Positions 1 through 35,493 of a stretch of DNA of 64,000 nucleotides are shown here, one piece after another. The notes beneath the pieces are model-generated. The model did no database searches and was not told where the DNA came from. It saw nothing but the letters and a program-made list of their open reading frames with translations. Position numbers and translations under genes: made by a program. The DNA lies in IMG/VR virus record IMGVR_UViG_3300018059_000012, positions 1 to 64,000 of that record. One strand, 5' to 3'. How positions within the stretch are numbered: position 1 is the stretch's first letter; each line of letters opens with the position of its first letter. The stretch is from a virus.

Positions 1-2
1 AC

Positions 3-821
3 CATGCCCGGGATCTCAACCTGATATTCCTCGCCGGGAATCATGACCGTGAAAATGATCGCTATGATAGCGTGACGATCTGGCCGTTAAGGGCGTTTGC
101 GAACGTTGTTGTCGAGCCTGAGATCGATACGGTGAACGACATCGTCTACGTTCCATGGCTGTACGATCAAGAGAAAGCGCTGAAGTTCCTGAAGGATCAG
201 AAAAAGGAACGTGAGATGTTGATGTTCCATGGTGAGCTCGATGGCGCTGAGGTCGGGCCCACGGACTACATGCTCAAGTCGCGCTACACCGAGACATCAC
301 TGGGTGTCGGGCGCTATGCACAGGCATTCGCAGGACATCTCCACAAGCGGCAACTCGTACACGGTGTGTTCTATCCAGGCAGTCATATCGCAAAAGATTT
401 TGGTGAACTCGAGCAGGACAAGGGCGTACTCTACGTCGATCCAGATGGGAAGGTAACACCGATCATGTTGCACTCACCGAAGTTCGTGGTGATCCATAAC
501 GCCGAGAGCCCTGATGATCCAGGGATCAACTGGGATAAGATTCACTGGAAGCATCTTGAGCAGGAGTTGAAGGGGAACCTGGTTCGCATCTTTGTTCCAC
601 ATGTCCTGGATCCGTCGATCGTTAAGCGGCTCGAGTCATGCAATCCTCGCTATCTCGACATACGACCAGAGCGTGTAGATAAGGAACAGATGGTCAGACT
701 CCAAGCTGCTGGGTCACGATCATTCAAGGATCTGGTTGAGGGCTACGTGATGCATCGTAAAATCCCTGATGATCTGCGAGAGGAATATGTGAGCTATGGG
801 ATTCAGAAGCTGGAATCTTAG
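3..821 (+). CDS. Mre11/SbcD-like metallophosphoesterase nuclease (T4 gp47-like), 5'-truncated by window edge
   Basis: The frame is open from base 3 (HARDLNLIFLAGNHDRE...), giving the GNHD motif; MFHG and AGHLH follow; lies next to a Rad50-like ATPase. Confidence 0.9.
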   Translation, partial: HARDLNLIFLAGNHDRENDRYDSVTIWPLRAFANVVVEPEIDTVNDIVYVPWLYDQEKALKFLKDQKKEREMLMFHGELDGAEVGPTDYMLKSRYTETSLGVGRYAQAFAGHLHKRQLVHGVFYPGSHIAKDFGELEQDKGVLYVDPDGKVTPIMLHSPKFVVIHNAESPDDPGINWDKIHWKHLEQELKGNLVRIFVPHVLDPSIVKRLESCNPRYLDIRPERVDKEQMVRLQAAGSRSFKDLVEGYVMHRKIPDDLREEYVSYGIQKLES

Positions 822-924: not shown

Positions 925-2699
925 TCGAGCTTGAGTTGCTCTGTATCAAGAATTTTATGCCGTTTGTGGGTGAGTACGAGATCCCACTGAGTGGGCAGGG
1001 CGTTGTCTTTGTCGTCGGAGAGAATCGTGTCTCGAAGATGGCGGGATCCAATGGCACCGGTAAGACCGCCTTGTTCGATGGGATCACGATAGCCTGCTAC
1101 GACAAACTGCTCAAGGGAACATCAGGCTCGCGTCTGATCAACAACGACTGTGATGAGATGCTGATCCAACTCTATTTCAAGGTGAACAAGAAACCCTACG
1201 TCGTCGAGCGTGAACAGAGCGGGAGCAAGCGACGCTGGGAGGTCTTCAGTCTGAATGGGGGCAAGGAACTACTCGGCGGTGGTGAGAAAATCGCCACTCT
1301 GTTCGGACTCTCATACAGGGCATTCACGCAGACCATTTTGTTTGGAGTCAGCGAGGAGAAAAATTTCGCTGGACTCTCTGATGTCCCACGCAAGCAGATC
1401 TTCGATGACCTCTTGGATCTTGCGTTCTTTGCAGTCTGCCGAAAGCATGTCGAAGATGAGGCCAACAAGATTGGTGGAGAGTTGCAAGAGGTTAAGGCTG
1501 ATCTGGATGTAATCAACGCGCAACTTGAGACGCTCCAGGGTGAGCGGAACAATCTCGAGAATTCACGTGAGCGAGCCGAGATCGATGCGCTACATCAGTG
1601 GCTTGATCGGCATGGTGAGCGTGTACACCTCTATGAGGAAATCAACGCGCTCTTCGTCAGGCTGATGGTTGCTAAGGAATCTCAAGTGCGTCGGCAGGAG
1701 ATCCTTGATGATTCGATGACGATCGCGGCACTGCGAAATAGACTTGATCGCATCAGTGAATCCATACATCGGAGTGTTGCCAAGATTCGGAGTGAACAAG
1801 ATTTGGTAGTCAATGCTGCACAGTGTTCAATGTGCCGCCGTTCGATTGGACCGTCAGAGCGCGGTGCCGTTGATCAACACTTTGCATTGGAACTCAGACC
1901 ACTCTACGATGAAATTGGACGGCTTCAACTCTACAACAGTGAGTTGGTTCACATCATCGCAGTCTGGCCTGCCTCACAAGCTGACGACGATTATGTCTTG
2001 CTCCAGAATAAACTTCAGCGAACTCTCAGGGAGACTCAAGACCTAGAGCGATACGCAAGCCAGCTTGATGAGGCGCGATTCATGCGCCAGGCTGCTGATG
2101 AAATGTTGGAGCGCATCGAGAAGTTGGCCAAGGATCGCGTCAGACTTGAGGGGCGGGTGAGTGAGTTGACCAAGGCGTTGGATCTCCGGGACTTCTGGGT
2201 GGAGGGCTTTGGGCATAAGGGCATGAAAGCGATGATGCTCAGAGACTACGAGGGATTCATCCAGAGTCGGCTCGAGAGCTACAGCCAGAGTCTGACTGCC
2301 GGTGAGTTGATTCCGCGATTCTCGGCGCATCGCATCCTGAAAAGTGGTGATGTTCGAGAGGAGATCACATTCGAGGTTGAGAACAAGTACGGGGCGAAGG
2401 TCTACGATGATCTCTCCTCAGGGGAGAAGCAGCGCGTGGATCTCTGCCTGGTGTTGGCCCTTCAGGATCTGACACGTGAACTCCATCATGGTCGATTCTC
2501 ACTGGCCTTGTACGATGAAATCTTTGAACACCTCGATGAGGCGGGGTGCGAGCGCGTGATGGATCTCCTGACTACGCAGCGGCGTGATTTCGGGAGCATC
2601 TTCTGTATCTCCCAGAATCCGAAGCTCCTCTCCTACCCATCGGATCATGTGATCCGGGTCGTCAAGACCGAGAAAGGTAGTGCGATCTATGTCGAGTGA
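921..2699 (+). CDS. Rad50/SbcC-like SMC ATPase (T4 gp46-like)
   Basis: Walker A GSNGTGKT, central CSMC zinc hook between coiled coils, signature LSSGEKQ, Walker B/D-loop LYDEIFEHLD. Confidence 0.93.
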   Translation: MIELELLCIKNFMPFVGEYEIPLSGQGVVFVVGENRVSKMAGSNGTGKTALFDGITIACYDKLLKGTSGSRLINNDCDEMLIQLYFKVNKKPYVVEREQSGSKRRWEVFSLNGGKELLGGGEKIATLFGLSYRAFTQTILFGVSEEKNFAGLSDVPRKQIFDDLLDLAFFAVCRKHVEDEANKIGGELQEVKADLDVINAQLETLQGERNNLENSRERAEIDALHQWLDRHGERVHLYEEINALFVRLMVAKESQVRRQEILDDSMTIAALRNRLDRISESIHRSVAKIRSEQDLVVNAAQCSMCRRSIGPSERGAVDQHFALELRPLYDEIGRLQLYNSELVHIIAVWPASQADDDYVLLQNKLQRTLRETQDLERYASQLDEARFMRQAADEMLERIEKLAKDRVRLEGRVSELTKALDLRDFWVEGFGHKGMKAMMLRDYEGFIQSRLESYSQSLTAGELIPRFSAHRILKSGDVREEITFEVENKYGAKVYDDLSSGEKQRVDLCLVLALQDLTRELHHGRFSLALYDEIFEHLDEAGCERVMDLLTTQRRDFGSIFCISQNPKLLSYPSDHVIRVVKTEKGSAIYVE

Positions 2700-3630
2700 T
2701 CATCTCACCGGTGGGACGGCGAATGTCCTCTACGCGGCGACAATTCAGGATGTGATGAGCTATGGGGAGTGGGTCGCCCCACTCTTGAACAAGACATCGC
2801 CGAGTGCGTCGCACAAGACGATCGAGCTCATTGGGCTCAGGATGGATCTGGACTATCCGCGGTCACGAGTGATTGCTAGTCAGGCTCGTCCGATCAATCT
2901 CGGTTTCGCGATCGGCAATTTCCTCTATCAGTTCATGGGGAGTGATGCAGTCCAGCCACTGCACTACTACAATCCAATCACGGGCAAGTTCTCTGACGAT
3001 GGCATCTCACTCCATGGTGCCTACGGGCCGCGTATTCTCCCGCAACTCACGCGGGTGATCGAGATGCTCAAGGCCGATCCAACTTCGCGTCGGGCAGTGG
3101 TAACGATTTTTAATGGGGCGATGGATCACATCGACTCGAAGGATATTCCTTGCCCGATTTCGATGCAGTTCTTCATTCGGCATCAGCAGCTTCACTGCCT
3201 CACCATGTTCAGGAGTCAGAACATCGTGATGGTCTATCCCTACGACATTTTCCTCTTCACGATGCTACACGAGTGGGTGGCGGCCCATCTCAACATGGGC
3301 ATGGGCATGCACATTCAGCAGAACGGATCGATGCATTTTTACGAGAACGAGATGGGACTGGCGCAGGAGATCCTCGACAAGCCGATGCATGGGTATACGA
3401 TGCCAGCCATGACACAGCCCACAGCAGGTGAATGGACGGCGATCATGCGCTACGAGCGTGATGTCAGGATGTGGGGTGAGAAGATCTTGCCACAGCCTGA
3501 CTTCCCCGCTGTCGATCCGTACTGGCAGGGGATTCTCTCGTTGCTCACACACTTTGCGACTGGGAAGCGTCGAGGCGAGCACTACATGCGGGACATCAGT
3601 GTCCTGGATGACTGCTTTACCGAAGCATGA
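2689..3630 (+). CDS. Thymidylate synthase-family enzyme, probably a dCMP-modifying enzyme (hydroxymethylase-like)
   Basis: GAYGPRI, SRRAV, catalytic DIPC, FRSQN...YPYD (Asp at the substrate-specificity position), SMHFYE. Confidence 0.85.
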   Translation: MSSDHLTGGTANVLYAATIQDVMSYGEWVAPLLNKTSPSASHKTIELIGLRMDLDYPRSRVIASQARPINLGFAIGNFLYQFMGSDAVQPLHYYNPITGKFSDDGISLHGAYGPRILPQLTRVIEMLKADPTSRRAVVTIFNGAMDHIDSKDIPCPISMQFFIRHQQLHCLTMFRSQNIVMVYPYDIFLFTMLHEWVAAHLNMGMGMHIQQNGSMHFYENEMGLAQEILDKPMHGYTMPAMTQPTAGEWTAIMRYERDVRMWGEKILPQPDFPAVDPYWQGILSLLTHFATGKRRGEHYMRDISVLDDCFTEA

Positions 3631-4136
3631 TCATCCTCGGGATCGATGTTCCAGGCAAGTACTTCGGTGGCTACGCAGTCTGTGAACACCGGATTGCGAA
3701 GGATGATCGCTTCAGAGAATCGATGCCGATTACATTCAGCGAGACCAAGAGTGAGATGATGCACTATCGCCAGCTTGGTGATCTCATCATTGCGATGGAC
3801 CGGAAGTACAAGCTTGATGGGATCGTGATGGAGCATCCGTTCCTCTATCGGATCGCGCAATGGATTGGTGGGATCAAGATGTTCATCGCCTGGAATCGCC
3901 CAGAGATTCCCTGGGTGATGGTGACAACGAGTTCGGCACAGAAGCTGCTGTACGGGCATGCGCTCCGAGAGAAGCGGGTCAACAAGAACGGACGTGAAGT
4001 GAGTGCGAACAAGGAGTATGTACTGGCCGATATGCAGGCTCGGTATGGTCTTGGTAAGATGTTCACGCAACATCAAGCCGATGCCCTGCTCTACGCAATG
4101 GCCGGGGCTCGATACCTGGAGAAGAAGAATGGATGA
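3627..4136 (+). CDS. RuvC-like Holliday junction resolvase
   Basis: N-terminal IILGIDVPG, central IVMEHPF, C-terminal HQADALL acidic triad. Confidence 0.8.
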   Translation: MIILGIDVPGKYFGGYAVCEHRIAKDDRFRESMPITFSETKSEMMHYRQLGDLIIAMDRKYKLDGIVMEHPFLYRIAQWIGGIKMFIAWNRPEIPWVMVTTSSAQKLLYGHALREKRVNKNGREVSANKEYVLADMQARYGLGKMFTQHQADALLYAMAGARYLEKKNG

Positions 4137-7943: not shown

Positions 7944-8372
7944 ATGAATCAGCAGCAAGACGAAATAGCGGCAGCACAGCAGCTCAAGGCGGTGCTTGGT
8001 GGACTCAACTTCAGCGAGTTCGGGTGGGTCCGTGTGGTTCAGGTCTTGTTCAGGCATATTCAATGGGTTGAGATCAACGAAGCGTTGAAGGTTCCTGATC
8101 ACGAGAGCGTTCTCGGGGCGATCAATAATCTCCGGCAGATCGAATCACTCGGCGCCGGAATGATTACTCGACTGCGCAAGGATTTTGGCAGGCTATTCGA
8201 GATGCACTTCACATTCGTCAACGGATGTGATTGTGGGAACTGGTCACCGGAGCGTGAGAAAACATTTCGAGAGATGATCGAGTTGATTCAACGCTATGAG
8301 ATTCCAGTATGTGAACAGGTGAGCAAGCAGCTGAAGGCTGACTATCCATCACTCTGGAGGGAGAGAACATGA
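7944..8372 (+). CDS. Hypothetical protein
   Basis: ORF coupled to its neighbours (ATGA overlaps). Confidence 0.6.
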   Translation: MNQQQDEIAAAQQLKAVLGGLNFSEFGWVRVVQVLFRHIQWVEINEALKVPDHESVLGAINNLRQIESLGAGMITRLRKDFGRLFEMHFTFVNGCDCGNWSPEREKTFREMIELIQRYEIPVCEQVSKQLKADYPSLWRERT

Positions 8373-8638
8373 AGCGATTGGTATTGCGTCTGCGGTGGAA
8401 CAAGAAGCTCGGGGAGTGGCAGTTGCTCAACAGTCGTGGCGAGCAGATTGATCTCTCGCATGATGGGCTCTACAGCAAGGCAGCTGTCGAGTCACTATCC
8501 AGGGCACACTGCCGCGAGCTGTACAAGGAGCGGCAGGTGTTCTGTCAGCTGGTGATTCACAACAAGAACGGGCAGATTCAGAAGGGCAACACTGGCGAGG
8601 CGACGTACGGGCGTGATCCCAAGCGGTCGAAAGGTTAG
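8369..8638 (+). CDS. DUF2188-like protein
   Basis: QLVIHNKNGQIQ...TYGRDP C-terminal motif. Confidence 0.7.
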   Translation: MKRLVLRLRWNKKLGEWQLLNSRGEQIDLSHDGLYSKAAVESLSRAHCRELYKERQVFCQLVIHNKNGQIQKGNTGEATYGRDPKRSKG

Positions 8639-8642
8639 AGCA

Positions 8643-9017
8643 ATGGACATGCAGTTCAATAAAGTGCACGTCATCAACGTCGAGCGCGGGAAGCTGTGGC
8701 ACGATGGGGATCTGAAAAACTGGAGTGTCGCGGACTGGTCCAATGCGATGGCCGGTGAAGCTGGGGAGACCTGTAACGCGGTGAAGAAGCTGCGACGCAT
8801 TCAGGACGAGATCAAGAACATCAGCGAGCCTGCCAGGCAGCTCTCGACAGTCGAGCAGGCGAAGGACAAAATCGCTGAAGAAGCCGCTGACACGTTCCTG
8901 TACTTGGACCTTCTACTCGAAGTGATCGATCGGAGCTTCCCGGATGCGATCATCAAGAAGTTCAACAAGACGTCCGAGGAGTACGGCTTCCCGCAGCGGC
9001 TTCCAGCAGGCGGCTGA
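8643..9017 (+). CDS. MazG-like all-alpha NTP pyrophosphohydrolase
   Basis: AMAGEAGETCNAVKK...IAEEAADTFLYL...KKFN. Confidence 0.85.
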   Translation: MDMQFNKVHVINVERGKLWHDGDLKNWSVADWSNAMAGEAGETCNAVKKLRRIQDEIKNISEPARQLSTVEQAKDKIAEEAADTFLYLDLLLEVIDRSFPDAIIKKFNKTSEEYGFPQRLPAGG

Positions 9018-9099
9018 CTGGACACGTTCAGAGCCGTGTATCTCTCAACGGGTGAAGTGGTACTCAGGCGACTGGAAGTTGTAGCCTACATCTAGGAGA

Positions 9100-9609
9100 A
9101 TGGTGAGCATGATACTCAGTGATGGATCGCTATTGGCGTTGCTTCCGACGCTCATTCCGAATGAACATGAGCGTGATGTAACGCTGGTGAATCCGGCGTC
9201 AGTCGATGTTCGTATTGGGCGTAACATGCTTGTGGAGCATGAAGAAGGTGGATTCGAGAAGATTCGACTCAGCAATTTGTCATATCACTGGGTAATGCAG
9301 CCTGGACAGTTCGTACTCGTCGATTTGTTTGAGAGCATCTACGTGCCGAATGGATACGCCGCGGAGTTGAAGCTCAAGAGCAGCCGGGCTCGTGAGGGCT
9401 ACAATCATTCACTGGCATTCTGGGTTGACCCAGGCTGGAATGGATACCTCACGATGGAAATCAAGAACCTCAGGCAGTACAGCACGCTGCCACTCTGGAC
9501 TGGATTCCGGTTCGCGCAGATCATTGTACACCAACTCGATTATCTCGCACTCAAGCCGTATGCCGGGCACTACCAGAATGCAGAGACTGTGGAGCCAAGC
9601 AAGCTGTGA
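9100..9609 (+). CDS. dcd: dCTP deaminase (dUTPase superfamily)
   Basis: NPASVDVRIG, KSSRAREG, VDPGWNGYLTMEI, FAQI, YAGHYQ. Confidence 0.85.
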   Translation: MVSMILSDGSLLALLPTLIPNEHERDVTLVNPASVDVRIGRNMLVEHEEGGFEKIRLSNLSYHWVMQPGQFVLVDLFESIYVPNGYAAELKLKSSRAREGYNHSLAFWVDPGWNGYLTMEIKNLRQYSTLPLWTGFRFAQIIVHQLDYLALKPYAGHYQNAETVEPSKL

Positions 9610-10480: not shown

Positions 10481-10980
10481 TGCCACTGATCTTCGTTGAC
10501 TGTGAGGCTGTTGGACCGTGTCCATCGATGGGTGAGCTCACCGAGTTCGGAGCGGTGAATTACGACTGCTACAAAGAGTTCAAGAATTACGAGACGTTCC
10601 ATGGGATTCTCGCGCAGTGCGTTCCGGATCAGACCAACCCAGCTAAGTCATTCATCGTCGGGGCACGGTACGATCCTAAGACGGTGTTCATTCAATTCGC
10701 ACAGTGGTTGAGTAGATTCAACGGACGTGCGATCTTCGTGAGTGACAACCCGGCATACGATTTTCAATGGATCAACGATGGGTTCTGGCGTCACACCGGG
10801 AGCAACCCGTTTGGACATTCAGGGCGTCGGATCTCCGACTACTATGCCGGACTTGTTGGGAACTTCGCGAAGAGTCAGGAGTGGAAACGGCTCCGTGTCA
10901 CATCGCACGATCACAACCCCGTGCACGATGCGATGGGGAACGTCGAAGCCTTCTATCGCATGCAACATGGCGAACGGTGA
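10480..10980 (+). CDS. DEDD-family 3'-5' exonuclease
   Basis: IFVDCEA, SDNPAYDFQWI, HNPVHDA. Confidence 0.85.
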   Translation: MPLIFVDCEAVGPCPSMGELTEFGAVNYDCYKEFKNYETFHGILAQCVPDQTNPAKSFIVGARYDPKTVFIQFAQWLSRFNGRAIFVSDNPAYDFQWINDGFWRHTGSNPFGHSGRRISDYYAGLVGNFAKSQEWKRLRVTSHDHNPVHDAMGNVEAFYRMQHGER

Positions 10981-10992
10981 TAGACTCCAGTC

Positions 10993-11676
10993 ATGCTAAC
11001 ACGTAAGCAACGGGAACGGCGAAAGAAAGAGACCGTGGCAGCTGGGCGTCGTTCGACGCCAAAGAACATGGAGATCATGCTAGAGAAGATGAAGCAGGCC
11101 GAAGAACTTGCCAAGACACGTGTGCCTCGGCCGACGATTCAGTTCGAAGTACCTCCGTATATCACCTTCCCAGCATTGGGTAAGAAACAGGTGCACACCG
11201 ATTTCAGCGATGAAATCGCAAACAAGGTTCTGGCCGGTGTCCGGATGGGGGCGAGCGATGGGATGGCGGCAGCGATGGCTGGGATCGCACCTGAAGTCCT
11301 GGTGGACTGGAAGAAAAAGGATGGAGAGCCATGGCGGACGTTCAAGCGGGAGTTTGACAAGGCCAAAGTCTACCCGAAGTTTTTCTTCCTTGATGCTACT
11401 GTTGTTCATGCCTATCATGACGGTGAGCTGGCTCTCAAGATGCTCAAGCGGCTCGAGCCCGAGACATACGCGGATGTCGTGCTCGTTAAGCAAGAACACT
11501 CTGGCTTGGTAACACACAATCACAATGTTGGCAGCATCATGGAACGGGTGGTGCAGAAAGTCCAGGCGCTTCGTGTTGGTGCGGCCAAGCAAATCGGAGC
11601 ATCATCAACATTAGCCTTGCCAACAGTCAAGAAGAATGGCAAGCCGCACGACCCACGTCCGCCTCGAGGAGGCTAA
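10993..11676 (+). CDS. Putative terminase small subunit (HTH type)
   Basis: FSDEIANKVL..VRMG....AAAMAGI....L.DW HTH, then F...F.KAK, ALKMLKRLEPETY and KQEHSG, a layout typical of TerS. Confidence 0.6.
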   Translation: MLTRKQRERRKKETVAAGRRSTPKNMEIMLEKMKQAEELAKTRVPRPTIQFEVPPYITFPALGKKQVHTDFSDEIANKVLAGVRMGASDGMAAAMAGIAPEVLVDWKKKDGEPWRTFKREFDKAKVYPKFFFLDATVVHAYHDGELALKMLKRLEPETYADVVLVKQEHSGLVTHNHNVGSIMERVVQKVQALRVGAAKQIGASSTLALPTVKKNGKPHDPRPPRGG

Positions 11677-11858
11677 CACATGCCAGTCAATCCGCAATCT
11701 CCGCAGTGCTCGTCGATTCATCTGTTCGTCTGGGGCAATGACAACAACGGACGAGCGCCTAGCGATGGTCCACAGCCGAACGAGCCACCACCCGGTACGC
11801 TGTGCGTCTGTAAGGCGACGAGCTGGATCGCTGAGAAGCAAAAGGCTGGCCTCGCGTA

Positions 11859-12107
11859 GTGGATCCATCGCGTATTGCGATCTTGACCCATGAACGACTC
11901 CACTGGCAGGAGGAAGCGGAGCGATTCAACAAGATCGTGCATGCGCAGCGCGAGCGCATAAGAAAGTTGGAGGGGAGTCCGAACACGCTGGTACTCCGGC
12001 GGGTGGTCACGTTTCTCCAAGTGATCGAGCCGGTGCTGTTGCGAGCTGATCATCGAGAGGATCGAATGGATCTCGAGAAAAAGGTGAGGGGGATGTTGGA
12101 TGTCTAA
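11859..12107 (+). CDS. Hypothetical protein
   Basis: Coupled ORF. Confidence 0.5.
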   Translation: MDPSRIAILTHERLHWQEEAERFNKIVHAQRERIRKLEGSPNTLVLRRVVTFLQVIEPVLLRADHREDRMDLEKKVRGMLDV

Positions 12108-12878: not shown

Positions 12879-14621
12879 ATGAACAGAAAAGTCTTGGTGC
12901 TCGGGGCGAGTGGAATCATCGGGCAGCATCTTCGTCGATGGCAGCCCGAGAATTTACAAGTGACGTATGCGAGTCGCCAGGAGTTGCCATGGCAGACCAG
13001 TGTGCAGGTGGATTTCAAGACTGACGCTGATGTCGAGCGATTCTGTGATCTCTGGGACGCCGATGTCGTAATCAACCTGATTGGGGAGAACAGCCCTGAT
13101 CGAGTAGAGCAGAATCCTGAGGAGTACTGGTTCCAGAACGGTGAGATTCCACTCGCGCTTAAGCGCTGGTCGGAGCGACGCAAACGCTGGTTGATCCACG
13201 TCAGCACGCAGGCGGTGTTCGGGGGACGAATCCCACCGTATCGGGCAGTGTTGCCCCCGGCTGACGTTGATCGTCCTGTGAATGAATACGGGAAACAGAA
13301 GCTCAAGGCCGAACAGCTCATGATGATGCGGCATCAGGAGACACTGGTGTATCTGGTCAGGCTGACATTCGTCCTTGGCATTAGACCATTTCCAGGTGTC
13401 GGGCGGGCGAATCCACTTGAACAGATGTATCAGTACACGATGCTGGCAATGACTGACAGGGTACATCGGCAGCGTCAGGTCGCCGATCGCTGGTTCTCAC
13501 CCTGTTTCGCGAACGATGCGGCGGCGTTTCTCTGGCAGCTGGTTAACACATTCACTCCGATGGATCCACTCCTGGAGCGATTTATGCTTAGGCGTCGGAT
13601 CTTTAACGTTGGACTTCCGATGAAAGTGAGTCGGGCTGACATCAACTACATAGCCGCGGCGAACCTGCTTTATCAACAGGGACGACTCCCAGAAAATTTG
13701 CACCGCAACGATGTTATGCTGGAGGTAGGACACGACAGAGCATTTCCAGGACTCGCGCAGCGCCCGATCGATACGACGTTTGCCAGTGATGCCGTGCACG
13801 ATGAAACATGGGATGAGGCCATCAACGTCTGTACAGCGGAGTGGAGGATACGGATGGATCGACAGAGTGAACACGACAGAGCATTGGAGATTTCCCTGTT
13901 CCTGGGCGTGCGCGAGGGTGAGGCGCGAGTCCAGCTGATGCGCGGATTCGGAGCGTTGCACGGTGAGGTCGCCAACGATTTCAGGGCGGCGCGGGTGCGG
14001 AAGCAGAAGTGGACGGACTTCGATCTGCTGATGTGGTACAAGCAGACCAACGCCTACATCTGGGAGCTGAGTGCCTACCACCTCAACGAAGGATTCAACT
14101 ACAGCGGGATGTGCTCAGGGATCTCCCAGCACCTGCTGAAGGAGTACGGGAACGCTGCTACAGTGGTGGCGCTCGGCGATGGCATCGGTGATCTCACGAT
14201 CAGCATGGAAGAGCACGGGCTCAATGCGGTGTATCACGACCTGCTTGGCAGTCAGACTGCCCGCTTCGCCTCGTTCCGGTTTCAGCGGCGTGGATACACG
14301 CCACTGCTGATGCTCACCGATGACTGGGCACCACCGAAGCTGCTCGATCCTACGGTTGGCGGACCAATCATGGCAGTTGTCGCGCTCGATTTCTTCGAGC
14401 ACCTAATCAACGTCGAGGACTGGGCAGAGAGCGTGTTCGAGATGCTGGCCCATGGTGGGCAGTTTCTCGCGCAGAATGCGTTCGGCATCGGTGATGAGGA
14501 ACACGAAGGCAGCATCCCGATGCATCTCACGCGCAACAACAAGTACGTTACCGAGTGGGAGCCACTTCTCAGCAAGATCGGATTTCAGAAGTTGCCGAGT
14601 GGCTGGTGGGTCAAGCCATGA
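12879..14621 (+). CDS. Fusion of RfbD-like NAD(P)-dependent sugar-nucleotide reductase/epimerase and class I SAM methyltransferase
   Basis: VLVLGASGIIG, IHVST..VF.G, PVNEYGKQK (YxxxK); C-terminal VVALGDGIGD and VALDFFEHL. Confidence 0.8.
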   Translation: MNRKVLVLGASGIIGQHLRRWQPENLQVTYASRQELPWQTSVQVDFKTDADVERFCDLWDADVVINLIGENSPDRVEQNPEEYWFQNGEIPLALKRWSERRKRWLIHVSTQAVFGGRIPPYRAVLPPADVDRPVNEYGKQKLKAEQLMMMRHQETLVYLVRLTFVLGIRPFPGVGRANPLEQMYQYTMLAMTDRVHRQRQVADRWFSPCFANDAAAFLWQLVNTFTPMDPLLERFMLRRRIFNVGLPMKVSRADINYIAAANLLYQQGRLPENLHRNDVMLEVGHDRAFPGLAQRPIDTTFASDAVHDETWDEAINVCTAEWRIRMDRQSEHDRALEISLFLGVREGEARVQLMRGFGALHGEVANDFRAARVRKQKWTDFDLLMWYKQTNAYIWELSAYHLNEGFNYSGMCSGISQHLLKEYGNAATVVALGDGIGDLTISMEEHGLNAVYHDLLGSQTARFASFRFQRRGYTPLLMLTDDWAPPKLLDPTVGGPIMAVVALDFFEHLINVEDWAESVFEMLAHGGQFLAQNAFGIGDEEHEGSIPMHLTRNNKYVTEWEPLLSKIGFQKLPSGWWVKP

Positions 14622-14992
14622 TCCTGAGCAGGGACGAAGCCAGAGACGTGATCAAGGAATTTCTCGAGGAAATCGCGACAGCGCCGAGCGAAGATGAGGC
14701 ACATTACGATGTCGAGACTCTCCTTGATAAGCTGTATCTGATGCCAGATCTTGATGTCGTGGTACTCCCGCTGAAAAAGGTGGAGCAGATCGCGGGATTA
14801 CTCCATCAAGGGACGATGAAGCTGCTGATGCACACGGATCTCGCCACAGTAGAGCAGGTCCACAACGAGCGGGATCGGCAGCTGAGTCCGTATCTGGGTG
14901 CGCGCGAGCTATACTTTCTCAAGAGCGCGTTAGTTCACAACGCTTGGACAGCTCGCTGGCTCGTGATGAACGCGAAGGAGAATCCGACATGA
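14618..14992 (+). CDS. Hypothetical protein
   Basis: Coupled ORF. Confidence 0.55.
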   Translation: MILSRDEARDVIKEFLEEIATAPSEDEAHYDVETLLDKLYLMPDLDVVVLPLKKVEQIAGLLHQGTMKLLMHTDLATVEQVHNERDRQLSPYLGARELYFLKSALVHNAWTARWLVMNAKENPT

Positions 14993-15882
14993 GCAGGCGT
15001 CTCGATATCGGCATCGCAAGCTACGGTAATCCAGCAGGGTTGCAGCGCCTGCTCGAGTCGTTGATGAAGACCTGTACAACGGATTGGCGGGCAGTCATCG
15101 TAGTGAATTCACATCCTGATCAGGAGCAAAATGACGCTGTGAACCGGATCCTCAAGGGCTGGGAAGATATCGACAGCAACGAGGATGGCGAGCGTCAACG
15201 GATCAAGCTGATTCGTCCGAAGGGAAACATCGGTTACGTCGGCGCGGTGAATCGGATCATGCAGGAGTGCGAGAGTGAGTACATCGCCTATTGCGATCAC
15301 GACGTCGTGCATCACAGCAATGGGTGGGATGAACTGATGGCACTGACACTGGATCGCTATCATGAGTTGGGGATTGTGTTTCCCAACGGTGGACCATATC
15401 CGATTCCTCGGGCGATGTACGTCGAGATCCTCTGGGGTGTCGGGTGTAACTGGATGATGTCCAGGCGTGTCGCGGCCGAAGTTGGCGGATTCGATCCTGA
15501 GATCGGGCATCATGAAGAGGTTGACTACCAGATCAGACTCCGCCTGGCTGGCTATAAGATCGCCGCGCTGCCGCAGATTCAGGTACAGCACATGGCGGTG
15601 GCATCCAGTGATCCAGCTTCGCAGGATCGGATCAGCAAGGGTGTAATCAACTGGGTCAACAAGTGGGTGCGCTACTTCGGTGGGCAGAATATGTCCTACT
15701 TCGCGAGCAATGTCTTGCGCCACGAAGACTGGCCGACTAGTGCGCTCTACCTCGAGGAATACTTCAAGCAGGCACTCCCGAATCTGAATCTCAATCCGGA
15801 AGTGGTAGTGGTCAACGGACAGGAGTTCGATCTCATCAAGGTGCCCAGGCTCAAGGGCTTCTACCGGTCACGCATCATCTAG
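14989..15882 (+). CDS. Glycosyltransferase, GT2/GT-A fold
   Basis: DIGIASY, NIGYVGAVN, YCDHD (DxD), VGGFDPE, EEVDYQIRLRLAGY. Confidence 0.88.
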   Translation: MSRRLDIGIASYGNPAGLQRLLESLMKTCTTDWRAVIVVNSHPDQEQNDAVNRILKGWEDIDSNEDGERQRIKLIRPKGNIGYVGAVNRIMQECESEYIAYCDHDVVHHSNGWDELMALTLDRYHELGIVFPNGGPYPIPRAMYVEILWGVGCNWMMSRRVAAEVGGFDPEIGHHEEVDYQIRLRLAGYKIAALPQIQVQHMAVASSDPASQDRISKGVINWVNKWVRYFGGQNMSYFASNVLRHEDWPTSALYLEEYFKQALPNLNLNPEVVVVNGQEFDLIKVPRLKGFYRSRII

Positions 15883-15899: not shown

Positions 15900-16760
15900 A
15901 TGACCTACAAGCGCGAGGATGTAGCGTGCATGATGCGGATCAGGAACGAAGCCCGCTGGATTCGTGAGGTAATCAGCAAAGCGTTTCAGGTTGTTGGAAC
16001 TGTGGTGGTACTCGACGATGGGAGTGATGATCAGACTGTTGCAGAGTGTGTCGCAGCCTGGTCAGGGCATGTTGATGTAGTTCCGAATCATGATACATTT
16101 GTCCTGAGATCTGATGAAGCTACGTTGCACGTTATTCGTTCGCCATTCAGGCCGGCAACGCGTACCTCACAAGCAGTGAGTGAAATCCGGGACAAGAATT
16201 TTCTCTGGGAATACTGCAAGAGCAAGGTATTGTTCAGGCACATGCTCTGTCTCGATGGTGATGAGGTCCCGAGTCAGGTATTCATCAGGGATTTTCATCA
16301 GATCATCATCTGGCTCGAGAAGCAAGTAGATGTCGTGAACATCCCATTCATCTACCTCTGGGATGGGAACAATCAGCGGCGCGTGGATGGGATCTATGGG
16401 AACCTGCCTGATGGGCAACCGCGTCTTCGGTTTCCACGCCTATTCACCATCGATCGGATTACGCCTGATCAGCTCCACATCATGCGATTCGCCTGGGAGG
16501 GGAGCAAGGGTGGCTTTCACTGTGGCTCTATCCCGCAGGAGAACTTTAGACCGAATGGTGGGGAGAAAGTGATAGCGACATTTGGGCGAGCACTGATTCA
16601 CTACGGCTATCGTGATGATGCGGATCGGCGTCGGAAGTACGTCTTCTACAACCAGATCGATCCGGGTAACAAGTTCGAAGGGGAGTACAAGCACATCATT
16701 GGAGAGCCGAACGTGCATGCTCCAGGTGCTGTTGAGTTGATTTCATGGGACGATAAATGA
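15900..16760 (+). CDS. Glycosyltransferase, GT2/GT-A fold
   Basis: IRNEARWI, VVVLDDGSDDQT, LCLDGDE, FHCGSIP, LIHYGY. Confidence 0.85.
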   Translation: MTYKREDVACMMRIRNEARWIREVISKAFQVVGTVVVLDDGSDDQTVAECVAAWSGHVDVVPNHDTFVLRSDEATLHVIRSPFRPATRTSQAVSEIRDKNFLWEYCKSKVLFRHMLCLDGDEVPSQVFIRDFHQIIIWLEKQVDVVNIPFIYLWDGNNQRRVDGIYGNLPDGQPRLRFPRLFTIDRITPDQLHIMRFAWEGSKGGFHCGSIPQENFRPNGGEKVIATFGRALIHYGYRDDADRRRKYVFYNQIDPGNKFEGEYKHIIGEPNVHAPGAVELISWDDK

Positions 16761-21270: not shown

Positions 21271-21972
21271 GGATGGATCCCTTGTCACGGGAACAGCGTG
21301 AAACACTCGAGGAGTTGAATCGCCGGGCGAAACGTTTGGCACGAGAAGCCCGTCCAGCGTATCGCCTCAAGCAGGAGCGTCGCTTCATTGCCTATCGCAT
21401 CATCGCGCTCAGCCTGTTCATGATTCTGCTGATGGTAGGGCTGGCGGCGTACTTTCTATGATGCCACGGATGCATTACGAACGGATCATGCTCCATGGGA
21501 ACAAGAAAGCAATATGCGCAACCAACGCGACGACCGCACAACTGACCGAGCACGTGAACGTCGTGACTTGCCTCGATTGTATCAAACGTTTGAAACGAGC
21601 CGGGAAGATGGCGGGGCTCGTCGTTGCATCATCGTGCCCCCATGGTTGCGGCCCAGCGAGCGCGTGCAGACAGAACGGCCGTACGCCTGCCGGTTCTGCC
21701 GAACAGGCCTGACATACATGACGAGCCCCCATCTCTGCGAGCAGATGGTGATGGCGAGCGAGCATGACGGAGGTCTCGCAGAGCGTGTTGACTGGTGTCG
21801 ACGGACACTCAGGCAGGCGTTCAAGAAGATCTTTGATCGCTACGAGATCGAAGATGTGGTGCTGGGGATATGACGCCCTGGCATTTGCTGAACAAGCGTG
21901 ATTGGTTGGCGTCGTGCCGGGAGGCGCTCACACGAGGTCGTATCACTGCTGTCCAACGACACAGGGAGACCG

Positions 21973-23451
21973 ATGATGAGCGATCCAACGACGGACAGTC
22001 CAGCAGTGCTTCTGAACAGACCAGAGGGCGGATCCGAACTCCAGGGTCGTTCACCTGGCGTGGCAGAGGGCCAGCCTGAGTCTACCCTTGATCTAGAGGG
22101 GAAAGATTCAACCCAGGCCCAGGACGGAGCACAGGCTAGGGGCTGGGAGCGGGGTATCCGGACCCCACCTGGGACCAGGCTGCTCAAGGTCCTGGTCCCG
22201 TCCTGCACTGATCAATTCCTGAATGTCTGTCTCGCGTCGATGGAGCGGAGTCAGCCAGGCTCCACCGGCAGCGTAATCATCGGGGACAACGGCATCAGTG
22301 AGGAGCTGAAGCGGAAGTATCCACAGGCGGTGTACATCCCGATTCCCAAGCCGTTCGTCTTCGCCAAGGCGGTAAACCTCATGGCGCAGGCGGCGGGGCA
22401 GTACCTCACGCAGATCCGCGACGACAACCAGAAAGACTTCATCGGGCCGGATCTCCTGGTGCTCAACGATGACTGTGAGGTGGAGAGCATCCACTGGCTG
22501 CACATGATTCAGCAGGCGCTAAGTCTGCCTACCCATCAGGACTACGGGATGCTGAGCCTGGAGATCAATGGCGGGGTGGGCAACGACGAGCAGAAGGTCA
22601 CACATCAGAATCCCGACGGGCTCACCGAAGTGGAGAAGCCGCTGATGTTCGTAGCGGTGGTGATCCGGAACGAGTGCTGGCAGACCGTGGGCCCACTCGA
22701 TGAGCGCTTCGTCGGCTACGGCTTCGATGACAACGACTACAACGTCAGGGTGAAAGCGGCAGGATTCAAGTGCGGGGTGATGGGCGCGGCCCGTGTCAAG
22801 CACGGGATGGGCGGCTATCCCCATTCCTCCTCATACGCCAGGATCTACGGGCAGGCGGAATGGAACAGACTCTACGAGATGAATGGCCGGCTGCTCAAGC
22901 ACAAGTATGGAGTGAAGGAAGTCACCAACCGGCTCTGCCTGAACATCGGATGTGGAGATCAGCCCAAGGCGAGCGAAGGCCTGGACCGCTGGTTGAACAT
23001 GGACATTCAGAACTTTCCTGGTGTGGAGATCGTCAGGGATCTCCGCCGTGGCATCCCGGTGCCTGATGAGACGTTCGATCACGTCCTGCTTGACAACGTG
23101 CTCGAGCACTTCGAGTCCGAGGATGTGGTCTTCATCATCAATGAGATCGATCGGATCCTCAAGGTCGGTGGGACGGCGGAGATCATCGTCCCGCACTGCA
23201 TGGTCGGGCAGGGTGCCTATCAGGACCCGACACACAAGAGCTTCTTCGTGCCCAGGTCAGTGCTGTACTGGAATCAGGAGATGAGTGCACGCGGTGGGAA
23301 GTTCGTGGGGATCTCCGCGAACCTCATCCCCTACCCCGATGCCGCGAAGGGCATCCAGGTCTACGGGGATTCGACGCACACCGAGGAGTTCATCCGCTTT
23401 ATCCTCAAGAAGAAGGCATGGGACAATCCTCGCCCGGTGATCACGTTCTGA
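21973..23451 (+). CDS. Fusion of GT2 glycosyltransferase and class I SAM methyltransferase
   Basis: FVFAKAVN, LVLNDDC, VGPLDERFVGYGFDDNDY; C-terminal LNIGCG, DI, DLRRGIP..DETFD, VLEH, DPTH. Confidence 0.88.
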   Translation: MMSDPTTDSPAVLLNRPEGGSELQGRSPGVAEGQPESTLDLEGKDSTQAQDGAQARGWERGIRTPPGTRLLKVLVPSCTDQFLNVCLASMERSQPGSTGSVIIGDNGISEELKRKYPQAVYIPIPKPFVFAKAVNLMAQAAGQYLTQIRDDNQKDFIGPDLLVLNDDCEVESIHWLHMIQQALSLPTHQDYGMLSLEINGGVGNDEQKVTHQNPDGLTEVEKPLMFVAVVIRNECWQTVGPLDERFVGYGFDDNDYNVRVKAAGFKCGVMGAARVKHGMGGYPHSSSYARIYGQAEWNRLYEMNGRLLKHKYGVKEVTNRLCLNIGCGDQPKASEGLDRWLNMDIQNFPGVEIVRDLRRGIPVPDETFDHVLLDNVLEHFESEDVVFIINEIDRILKVGGTAEIIVPHCMVGQGAYQDPTHKSFFVPRSVLYWNQEMSARGGKFVGISANLIPYPDAAKGIQVYGDSTHTEEFIRFILKKKAWDNPRPVITF

Positions 23452-24808: not shown

Positions 24809-25075
24809 ATGGACAGGCGAGGATTCCTCAGGTACTTGCCGATGCTGCCAACATTGCCGGCAGTGGCGATGCAGCACATCACTCCGATACAGAAGATCAT
24901 GACGAGCGAGACCACGAGGCCGACACTCATGAAGGGTGGGCTCTTCAAGACGCGGCAGTCGTGGGAGGTGCTCGCCAATGGTGGTAAGCGGATCATCGAG
25001 CATGTGACCTGGGTGACCGTGAACAACGAAACCATACCCGGTAGTACGCGGTGGATCCAGTATGCAAGGCGTTGA
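24809..25075 (+). CDS. Small protein with twin-arginine-like N-terminus
   Basis: MDRRGFLRYL; AGGAGG RBS. Confidence 0.55.
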   Translation: MDRRGFLRYLPMLPTLPAVAMQHITPIQKIMTSETTRPTLMKGGLFKTRQSWEVLANGGKRIIEHVTWVTVNNETIPGSTRWIQYARR

Positions 25076-25799
25076 AAGCGAGAGCGGTGGGGTCATGGTC
25101 GCTGTCCCATCCAGCGGTCTGACTCGCTACATCACCTTCGAGATGTCAGTCGAAGGGGTTTTCGTTCCACGGCATTCCACGTATGCGCGGCCATCGAGCA
25201 GCAGCCCGGCGTGGAACCGGAATGAAATGATCAGGCGGGCCAAGCCGGAGATCTCCCACTTCTTCTTCGTCGATGATGATCACATGTTCGACCAAGAGCT
25301 GATCATGAAGTTGTTGGCGCACAAGCTGGAGATCGTCTGCTGCTTGACCCTGCTGAGCAAGCCTCACTTCTGGCCGGTGCTCTTCGCGGATGAGGTAAAG
25401 GTGAACGGCAAGACCAAGTGGCAGTCCGTGCCGTGGACGGAGTTGGATCACAAGACAGGGCTCTACGGCCCGGTGTGGGCAGCGGCAGGCGCTGGCATTC
25501 TCGTGGCGAAGACACTCACCGATCGCATTCCGGATCCATGGTTCGCGCTCGGGCAGTACTCCAAGGATGAGTGTCATGAGGATATGTACTTCTACGATCG
25601 GGTCCGTGAGGCTGGGGTGCCGATCTACGTCGATGTCGAGGCCGTGCTTGGGCACACGGCGCCATGTACGGCGATGCCGGTTCGTGGTGATGATGGGCTC
25701 TGGCGCGTCCAGCTCGTCTGGGAGAATGGGGAGACGGTCACCCTCGATCGCAAGGACTCGATGCTGAAAGCACAGATCCTTGCCGGAGCCAGGCCATGA
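25062..25799 (+). CDS. Glycosyltransferase, GT-A fold
   Basis: RNEMI, FFFVDDDHMF (DxD), GAGILV, PWF, HEDMYF..RV..AG..IYVD....GH. Confidence 0.8.
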   Translation: MQGVESESGGVMVAVPSSGLTRYITFEMSVEGVFVPRHSTYARPSSSSPAWNRNEMIRRAKPEISHFFFVDDDHMFDQELIMKLLAHKLEIVCCLTLLSKPHFWPVLFADEVKVNGKTKWQSVPWTELDHKTGLYGPVWAAAGAGILVAKTLTDRIPDPWFALGQYSKDECHEDMYFYDRVREAGVPIYVDVEAVLGHTAPCTAMPVRGDDGLWRVQLVWENGETVTLDRKDSMLKAQILAGARP

Positions 25800-34578: not shown

Positions 34579-35493
34579 ATGGCTTCGAAAGACTTTGATC
34601 TGTGGTTCATCGGAGCGCCAGTCCTCCAGACAGGCTCGACGGGCGACTTTGCGTATTGGTTCATCGGGGCACCAGTCTTGCAGTTCGGGGTGGTCACACC
34701 CCGCGACCTGGTCCGCGATGAAAGCATTCCTGTTGAGTCTGGCATTGCCCTCCAGAGTCTTGTTCTCGATGCCGCCATTCCAATTGATTCACTGGGGGCG
34801 GTGGTTGGTCTCATCCGTGATGAAGCAATCCCAGTCGAAGCCGGGCAGGGGATTCAGCGTGATGTCACGATTCCAGTGGAGAGTCATGGCAGTCTGCGCA
34901 TCACTGCGGAGATCCCTGTTGAGTCGCTTGGGAGCCTGGTTCGCGACGATGACATCCCGATTGATAGTGAACAGACACGCATCGCTCTGACACGTGATGA
35001 AGCGATCCCTGTCGAAGCGGTTACAGGAGTTACCCGTGACGATGAAATTCCGATTGACTCGACTGCTGTTGCGGTGCTTACTCTGGATCGGGATGAAGCA
35101 ATCCCGATTGATGCGTCGACTGTTCCAATCACTCCGTCGGATCTCGTCGTCTTCTACGGTGCAGGCGCCCCGTGGCCACCGTCGTGGCTCGTCAGAGCCC
35201 CGCTGCTCAACCGGACCCAGCACTGCGCAGTGCTCTACCTCGGCGGAACAAGCTGGAGTACATTCACCGGGAGCGAGCTACCCCCACGCCCGTCTCACAT
35301 GGTCAAGCCCGTTAAAGCGCCCAGGCGGATTCGGAAGCCACATCCGACTCCGGCCCATCCAGGGTATGTCCGTGCGGGGCATTCGTCGATCATCTGGCTC
35401 GGCGGGCGCTCGACGGAAGCGACGCGGATCGACAGAGCAGCCGTGATGAAACAGGATGAGGAGGACTTCATGACGCTCCTGGCACTGCTATGA
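34579..35493 (+). CDS. Repeat-containing putative structural protein
   Basis: DF..WFIGAPVLQ twice, then about 9 copies of (RD)xxIP[VI][ED][SA]. Confidence 0.65.
   Translation: MASKDFDLWFIGAPVLQTGSTGDFAYWFIGAPVLQFGVVTPRDLVRDESIPVESGIALQSLVLDAAIPIDSLGAVVGLIRDEAIPVEAGQGIQRDVTIPVESHGSLRITAEIPVESLGSLVRDDDIPIDSEQTRIALTRDEAIPVEAVTGVTRDDEIPIDSTAVAVLTLDRDEAIPIDASTVPITPSDLVVFYGAGAPWPPSWLVRAPLLNRTQHCAVLYLGGTSWSTFTGSELPPRPSHMVKPVKAPRRIRKPHPTPAHPGYVRAGHSSIIWLGGRSTEATRIDRAAVMKQDEEDFMTLLALL

Follow-up and report, generated by a model that had tools for sequence, protein, structure and literature searches.

5-Hydroxycytosine is a recently recognised route to glycosylated phage DNA, which is resistant to restriction enzymes and influences how sensitive the phage is to defence systems. 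Among the closest described systems, RB69 gp48 and DLP3 gp80 are thymidylate synthase (TS) homologues that carry N177D and L143E (E. coli ThyA numbering, marked Ec below) and turn deoxycytidine monophosphate (dCMP) into 5-hydroxy-dCMP (5hodCMP), as described by Lee et al. (NAR 2026, PMC13326640). In this study, we analysed a TS-fold gene located at positions 2689-3630 (+ strand) of the IMG/VR virus record IMGVR_UViG_3300018059_000012 and compared it with these systems. The stretch analysed, referred to as the window, covers the opening 64 kb of a linear virus contig (75,470 bp, CheckV completeness 84%) from an uncultured phage lineage with a genome of ~90 kb.

According to the same study, the oxygen of 5hodCMP derives from O2, as followed by 18O2 labelling, and a flavin is loosely bound to the proteins. 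The sole consistent difference of the 5hodCMP synthases is an Asn at Asp169, and D169N was proposed as a predictor; 5-hydroxydeoxycytidine (5hodC) was produced by all nine additional D169N homologues that were tested, which came from IMG/VR, phage Thanatos and RL38JI. L143D/E is also part of the signature, with Asp at Leu143 accompanying non-methyl products. 5-Hydroxycytosine in DNA is subsequently glycosylated, with arabinose or with galactose or glucose, and in E. coli, RB69 gp48 and a kinase were enough to give 5hodC when the U32 protein was not present. The structure of the HY126 enzyme has been solved with flavin (He et al., Nat Chem Biol 2026, as reported by a citing paper). The PDB entries of this enzyme, AfhB (9iqc, 9iqu and 9ir2), are ~99% identical to RB69 gp48, and two of them bear the titles 'Monooxygenase dependent on riboflavin with dCMP and FAD' (9iqc) and 'phage HY126 dCMP hydroxylase-AfhB' (9iqu). 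Both this class of enzyme and the residue that diagnoses it have thus been described before. A second described relative is MilA, the mildiomycin CMP 5-hydroxymethylase (PDB 5b6d, 5jnh), in which the ribose preference is set by Ala176 and Lys133' and Glu68 is catalytically important (PMC5175136).

Results

A thymidylate-synthase homologue with the signature of 5hodCMP synthases

We found that the product of the gene at 2689-3630, a 313-aa protein denoted P0001, is likely to be a flavin- and O2-dependent dCMP 5-hydroxylase (5hodCMP synthase) with a TS fold. P0001 retains the catalytic Cys and carries D169N, N177D and L143D together, which is the published 5hodCMP-synthase signature. The open reading frame (ORF; 2680/2689-3630, + strand) is uninterrupted, and translation from the ATG at 2689 gives a protein whose start (MSSDH) and length match those of a 76%-identical homologue. 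The protein matches Pfam PF00303 (thymidylate synthase, E 3.9e-19) and four PHROG TS families, and its gene is the sole TS homologue on the contig.

Annotated records supplied the reference sequences, among them E. coli ThyA, T4 gp42 and RB69 gp48, which were aligned with P0001 and whose motifs were also read directly. The translation of window positions 3208-3246 (+) is exactly FRSQNIVMVYPYD, in which Arg175-Ser176-Gln177-Asn178 correspond to Ec R166-S167-C168-D169 and Asp186 corresponds to Ec N177. Positions 3142-3153 (+) encode Asp152-Ile-Pro-Cys155, which comprises the nucleophilic Cys (Ec C146) and an Asp at the position of Ec Leu143. The codon at 2917-2919 (+) encodes Asn77, which an ungapped HMMER alignment to MilA places at the position of Ec Glu58 and MilA Glu68, a residue that serves as the general acid-base in folate-dependent TS enzymes. 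The catalytic Cys is thus embedded in 'KDI-PC' and followed by 'RSQN IVMVYPY D' in the window protein, compared with 'ALA-PC' and 'RSCD VFLGLPF N' in E. coli ThyA; T4 gp42 has RSND and Asp at Ec 177. The initial annotation had described an Asp at the dUMP-selecting Asn177 position and an Asn in place of the Asp of RSxD, and both states were recovered in the translation, in the alignment and in the direct reading of the motifs, as Asp186 and Asn178.

To describe conservation, we aligned P0001 with 22 metagenomic homologues of 37-76% identity; P0001 and these relatives are referred to as the window clade. Asp152, Pro154, Cys155, Arg175-Ser176-Gln177-Asn178, Tyr185-Asp186, His216 and Tyr218 were invariant in all 23 sequences. 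Because Asn178 and Asp186 are invariant over this range of identity, neither chance nor sequencing error accounts for them. The position of Ec Glu58 varied. It is Asn, Gln or Leu in the alignment and Ala in further representatives of the clade, and elsewhere it is Phe in the verified Pootjesviridae enzymes and Glu in RB69 gp48.

We then surveyed the residue signatures of the 120 best homologues together with the references. The Gln-Asn pair at Ec 168-169 was found only in the window clade (23/23) and in four enzymes of the verified type, namely RB69 gp48, that of a DLP3-like Lazarusvirus and two from Pootjesviridae. It was present in none of the 95 D169-type, hydroxymethylase-like relatives, all of which have RS[N/S]D with Glu58. 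At the positions of MilA Ala176 and Lys133', P0001 has Ser176 and Arg134. Since these replace the ribose-preferring residues of MilA, P0001 is of the deoxyribose type, and a MilA-like specificity for CMP was ruled out by the same two residues. Together with the cytosine-type Asp at Ec 177, this points to dCMP as the substrate, in agreement with the initial annotation.

The AlphaFold2 model of P0001 has a pLDDT of 94. The closest structure was MilA (Z 33.9, root-mean-square deviation (rmsd) 2.1 A, TM 0.8), with 282 aligned residues that include a C-terminal helical extension of ~80 aa. The model also matched 9iqc (Z 25.5, rmsd 1.9 A, 221 of 234 residues) and 9iqu (Z 24.9, rmsd 1.6 A, 211 residues), while canonical TS structures scored Z 23.8 or less. 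As the Z scores of 9iqc and 9iqu lie within about 2 of those of canonical TS, these two matches show a shared fold only.

Predicted chemistry and predicted product

On the model of TS chemistry and of the published work on RB69 gp48 and HY126 AfhB, the reaction would begin with attack of Cys155 on C6 of dCMP. Asp186 would hold and activate the base, and Ser176, Arg175, Arg134'/Arg135', His216 and Tyr218 would hold the deoxyribose phosphate. The C5 nucleophile would then take oxygen from reduced flavin and O2, with the flavin lying in the site that holds folate in ThyA, and elimination of the Cys would free 5hodCMP. Methylene-tetrahydrofolate is not expected to be used, because the acids that activate it (Ec Asp169 and Glu58) are Asn178 and Asn77 in P0001. 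Direct evidence that Asn at Ec 169 disables methylene-folate chemistry comes from PDB entry 1bjg, whose title states that the 'D221(169)N mutant does not promote opening of the cofactor imidazolidine ring'.

The initial annotation had proposed that the enzyme makes 5-hydroxymethyl-, methyl- or another modified dCMP, perhaps by non-standard chemistry. The non-standard chemistry is borne out by the Asp169-to-Asn change, which marks the published 5hodCMP synthases. The first two products are unlikely, since methylene-tetrahydrofolate chemistry requires Asp169 and Glu58 and both are missing. A folate-dependent dCMP hydroxymethylase of the T4 gp42 or MilA type, which would give 5-hydroxymethyl-dCMP, is accordingly a reading that we consider improbable. 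It would explain why MilA is the best match in sequence (E 1.1e-25) and in fold, and why the helical extension at the C-terminus is MilA-like; Asp at both Ec 177 and Ec 143 is also common to hydroxymethylases. However, Asp169 is invariant in the hydroxymethylase-like relatives (95/95) and is Asn in P0001, the equivalent of MilA Glu68 is Asn77, and the D169N mutant TS failed to open the cofactor ring, as the title of 1bjg states. The natural D169N homologues tested by Lee et al. (PMC13326640) all gave 5hodC and none gave 5-hydroxymethyldeoxycytidine.

A dCMP methyltransferase producing 5-methyl-dCMP, or an ordinary TS supplying dTMP, would fit the Pfam and PHROG label of thymidylate synthase, and an N229D mutant TS has been described as a dCMP methylase (Liu and Santi 1992, as reported by a citing paper). 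Either activity is very improbable for P0001, in which Asn177 (dUMP selection), Asp169, Glu58 and His147 are replaced by Asp, Asn, Asn and Pro, and in which the C-terminal extension takes the place of the closing C-terminus of ThyA. The Asp at Leu143 also argues against it, as this residue accompanies non-methyl products (PMC13326640). The loss of two canonical catalytic acids could alternatively suggest a catalytically dead nucleotide-binding protein. This is hardly credible, given that conservation down to 37% identity is complete at the catalytic Cys, at the phosphate-binding arginines and at His216 and Tyr218, and that the same acids have been lost in enzymes proven active.

With dCMP hydroxylation as the preferred reading, it follows that cytosine in the phage DNA is probably replaced by 5-hydroxycytosine, which may be sugar-coated. 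The predicted product is the type of base that phage glycosyltransferases use, and this is consistent with the proposal of the initial annotation that the enzyme provides an acceptor for them.

Phylogeny of the D169-less branch

A phylogenetic tree resolved the window clade with support of 99/97 and the verified enzymes with 100/100, but the backbone was a polytomy, and the placement of the window clade relative to the verified enzymes differed between trees. Forcing all RSQN rows together cost 0.29 log-likelihood units (lnL), with a p value of 0.41 in the approximately unbiased test (p-AU), so that monophyly was not rejected. A tree in which every D169-less protein (verified, window clade, RSQS and RSNN) formed one clade was better by 25.9 lnL than the free quick search (p-AU 0.83). 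Because this constrained tree outscores the free search, a single origin of the D169-less branch is favoured but not proven. One tight clade of the RSQN enzymes with RB69 was neither shown nor rejected by the polytomy, the two constrained trees and a FastTree topology considered below.

A profile search of 1.84 billion representatives placed the window clade in ~10 clusters (at 50% identity) with E values of 3e-96 or better, followed by a gap to 3e-72. Its nearest neighbours are a large uncultured radiation with RSQS (D169S), Asp at Ec 177 and no Glu58 (N, L, Q, S and others at this position). RSQS was carried by ~85 of the 150 best representatives (proteins P0025 and P0127-P0263; loci L026-L028, L030 and L032), and the radiation has no close relative in any cultured phage. 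Asn and Ser have exchanged at Ec 169 several times within the RSQS radiation, which suggests one shared function.

We also observed a supported clade with RSNN (D169N) that keeps the uracil-type Asn at Ec 177, while its Glu58 position is occupied by Arg or Gln. Among its members are proteins of cluster R mycobacteriophages, such as Mycobacterium phage Papyrus gp76 (L007:392-1393), as well as P0079, P0105 and P0264. This clade might correspond to the hydroxylase but act on dUMP.

Genes accompanying the enzyme

We compared the gene context in the window with that in two IMG/VR relatives of the window clade. The first, G001, is 97 kb long and 92% complete, has a TS homologue 76% identical to P0001, and is syntenic with the window throughout, including the sugar genes. 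The second, G002, has a TS homologue of 41% identity, keeps the order SbcD-SbcC-TS, and has a GT-A glycosyltransferase gene 2.4 kb downstream (locus L016), whose product has no similarity to the transferases of the window.

The protein of RB69 two genes from gp48, gp50 (L001:8493-9662, - strand), matched Pfam Peptidase_U32 (7e-11). U32 enzymes include the rRNA and tRNA C5-hydroxylation factors RlhA and TrhP. A U32 gene was located directly upstream of SbcD in both G001 (L015:6011-7081) and G002 (L016:5735-6811), giving the order U32-SbcD-SbcC-TS. The two U32 proteins are 37% (E 7e-63) and 39% (E 1e-73) identical to RB69 gp50, respectively, and 68% identical to each other; they are better conserved than the TS genes. 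In the RSQS loci the U32 gene adjoins the TS gene, and in the relatives of the window it lies upstream of SbcD-SbcC-TS. The contig of the window begins at residue ~83 of SbcD, which cuts off the corresponding slot. Overall, gp50 orthologues of 36-41% identity accompany D169-less TS genes, as direct or close neighbours, in six loci, including L026/L027:~11084-12091, L028:~10978-11958 and L030:~8328-9335. Neither D169S nor the linkage of TS with U32 is mentioned in the accessible text of Lee et al. (PMC13326640).

In G001, a Tmk-like P-loop kinase (EGPDGCGKTT, L019:3074-3610, - strand) was found beside a GT4-like gene (L019:3992-5155, - strand), near genes for a primase, DnaB and UvsW. This arrangement resembles RB69 gp45-gp47, with no sequence similarity beyond the P-loop. 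The kinase matches Tmk and deoxynucleoside kinases at the P-loop only, and no PDB entry matched the sequence of the GT4-like protein, which is also dissimilar to RB69 gp46 and gp47.

In the window itself, two genes related to the dCTP pool were located 5-6 kb downstream of the TS gene. The initial annotation had noted a MazG-like pyrophosphatase and a dCTP deaminase nearby. The deaminase is solidly identified: the gene at 9100-9609 (+) encodes a dCTP deaminase family protein (Pfam PF22769, 5.1e-20; PHROG 1663, 2e-36; PDB dCTP deaminases, 4e-16) with SSRAREG and LTMEIKN motifs and a catalytic-type Glu, and it would drain dCTP and supply dUTP and dUMP. The gene at 8643-9017 (+) is a candidate for a MazG-like all-alpha NTP pyrophosphatase, possibly a dCTPase converting dCTP to dCMP. 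This more tentative assignment comes from protein-atlas features (score 0.97 to MazG clusters), structure (TM 0.83-0.87) and a weak PDB match to 4qgp (E 0.13) over an EExAD..YL motif; Pfam and PHROG gave no match. The protein is 93.5% identical in G001.

Candidate sugar genes were placed between the genes for the small and large terminase subunits. The gene at 12879-14621 (+) encodes an RmlD/epimerase-like nucleoside-diphosphate (NDP)-sugar reductase fusion (Pfam RmlD_sub_bind, 5.6e-24; Epimerase, 3e-16; PHROG 540), a candidate for sugar-donor synthesis, with 87% conservation in G001 over its first ~290 aa or more. It is followed at 14944-15882 (+) by a candidate GT2-family glycosyltransferase (Pfam Glycos_transf_2, 8e-11; PHROG 2456), conserved in G001 at 81%, whose target could be DNA, the virion or a host glycan. 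The gene at 21898-23451 (+) encodes a 517-aa protein with an S-adenosylmethionine-dependent methyltransferase domain (Pfam Methyltransf_11, 2.5e-7; PHROG methyltransferase, 1e-8) and a weak, candidate glycosyltransferase-like N-terminal part (PHROG galactosyl transferase, 1e-4); it is conserved in G001 at 76%. The glycosyltransferases of the window are of the GT2/GT-A type, and further transferase genes are located at 15900-16760 and 25062-25799.

Taken as a pathway, the MazG-like dCTPase and the dCTP deaminase would shrink the dCTP pool and supply dCMP. After hydroxylation by P0001, a Tmk-like kinase, which was found in G001 alone, would form the diphosphate and the host nucleoside diphosphate kinase would form 5-hydroxy-dCTP. 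The phage replisome would incorporate 5-hydroxycytosine instead of cytosine, and glycosyltransferases could then add a sugar to the 5-OH on the DNA.

The U32 linkage also bears on the identity of the product. A D169-less TS-fold enzyme could make something other than 5hodCMP, either by placing another substituent on C5, by using another oxidant or cofactor, or by requiring the U32 partner. The nesting of the clade in a large uncharacterised radiation with Ser169 and without Glu58, the changes specific to the clade (Tyr at W61, Pro at H147, Phe at Q165 and an SSPS insert) and the tight linkage of U32 genes to D169-less TS genes in six loci are all in line with such an enzyme. We nevertheless regard it as unlikely, as the Gln-Asn pair and the remaining nucleotide site are identical to those of the verified enzymes, the repeated exchange of Asn and Ser at Ec 169 suggests one shared function, and RB69 gp48 with a kinase yielded 5hodC in E. 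coli in the absence of U32 (PMC13326640). A broader and somewhat doubtful possibility is that P0001 stands for a large, almost entirely uncultured branch of the TS superfamily that has lost both folate-activating acids (Glu58 and Asp169, now RSQ[N/S]) and travels with a gp50-like U32 protein, and that it leads to an undescribed DNA hypermodification in this phage. Either the product would then be something different from 5hodCMP, or 5-hydroxycytosine would bear a methylated or deoxy-sugar glycan of a new kind. In the latter case, the RmlD-like reductase, the GT2-type transferases and the methyltransferase domains at 12.9-25.8 kb would assemble the glycan.

Other features of the contig

The region upstream of the TS gene (3-2699, + strand) contains SbcD-like and SbcC-like genes (PHROG 100; Pfam SMC_N/SbcC), which serve as a synteny anchor and are outside the pathway. 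The SbcD gene (window 1-821) is truncated at its 5' end by the start of the contig. The ATG of the TS gene overlaps the stop codon of SbcC (ATGTCGAGTGA, window 2689-2699), and this overlap suggests that the two genes are translationally coupled.

The conserved gene 3' of the TS homologue (window 3627-4136) has a beginning that resembles RuvC-type resolvases (MIILGID...) and gave no Pfam or PHROG match. Its homologue in G002 (L016:10933-11811) is longer and carries an HNH domain. Further downstream, at 35490-38276, a Mu-F-like head protein of 928 aa has a NUDIX domain at its C-terminus. At the other end of the contig (74631-75470, - strand), an open ORF encodes a MacB-like periplasmic core domain (7e-9). 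This is odd in a phage, and the ORF may represent flanking host DNA, a moron or a join created during assembly.

Discussion

Several points weigh against P0001 being a 5hodCMP synthase. We infer its cofactor and product from the residue signature. The identity between P0001 and RB69 gp48 amounts to only 28% over 165 aa, and overall P0001 is closer to the folate-dependent CMP hydroxymethylase MilA, by E value, Z score and C-terminal extension. The Tyr at Ec W61, Pro at H147, Phe at Q165 and the SSPS insert are specific to the clade and absent from the verified enzymes. In the FastTree topology, the window clade is nested in the D169S (RSQS) radiation and the verified enzymes lie outside it, so that Asn169 may have been acquired independently. 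The contig of the window, which is 84% complete and cut inside SbcD, has no kinase, U32 or GT4 gene. In addition, the preprint of Lee et al. gives no IMG/VR identifiers for the nine tested homologues, and these may lie outside the window clade.

P0001 widens the family past T4-like and Rhizobium phages to an uncultured lineage of ~90 kb with different sugar genes. The published D169N marker is one state of a wider branch that lacks both Glu58 and Asp169, in which Ser is commoner than Asn. If it is true that the whole branch hydroxylates dCMP, DNA based on 5-hydroxycytosine would be present in many more phages than the D169N rule predicts.

Comparison with the known systems places P0001 at different distances from each. 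With E. coli ThyA it shares the fold, the catalytic Cys, Arg166-Ser167, His207 and Tyr209, but Asn177, Asp169, Glu58, His147 and Leu143 are replaced and the C-terminus differs. T4 gp42, a dCMP hydroxymethylase, likewise comes from a phage, takes dCMP as its substrate and carries Asp at Ec 177; it belongs to a system in which cytosine is replaced before replication, a dCTPase helps and the DNA is glycosylated afterwards. Unlike P0001, gp42 has RSND and Glu60, depends on folate, and branches far off on long branches.

MilA resembles P0001 in its length class and C-terminal extension, and Asp186, Cys155, His216 and Tyr218 are identically numbered in the two proteins. In contrast to P0001, MilA has Asp178 (RAND) and Glu68, uses methylene-tetrahydrofolate, and has Ala176 and Lys133 where P0001 has Ser176 and Arg134.

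The 5hodCMP synthases (RB69 gp48, DLP3 gp80, HY126 AfhB and RL38JI-type Pootjesviridae) share with P0001 the TS fold, the catalytic Cys, RSQN, phage origin, the Asp at Ec 177, an acidic residue at Ec 143 and the Arg/Ser deoxyribose-phosphate site. In the relatives of the window, a gp50-like U32 protein, a Tmk-like kinase, a MazG-type pyrophosphatase and glycosyltransferases also co-occur, as they do in these systems. P0001 differs in length (313 aa versus 235-258) with its MilA-like extension of ~80 aa, and Glu58 is replaced as in Pootjesviridae and unlike RB69. Its gene follows SbcD-SbcC in an uncultured ~90-kb phage, compared with the gene clusters of Straboviridae and Pootjesviridae, and no arabinose-5-phosphate isomerase or NDP-arabinose genes were seen there, with an RmlD-like reductase, GT2-type transferases and methyltransferase domains found instead. 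With its 28% identity to RB69 gp48, MilA-like length and extension, lack of Glu58, own substitutions and different phage lineage and sugar tool-kit, P0001 would represent a new, divergent subfamily of these enzymes.

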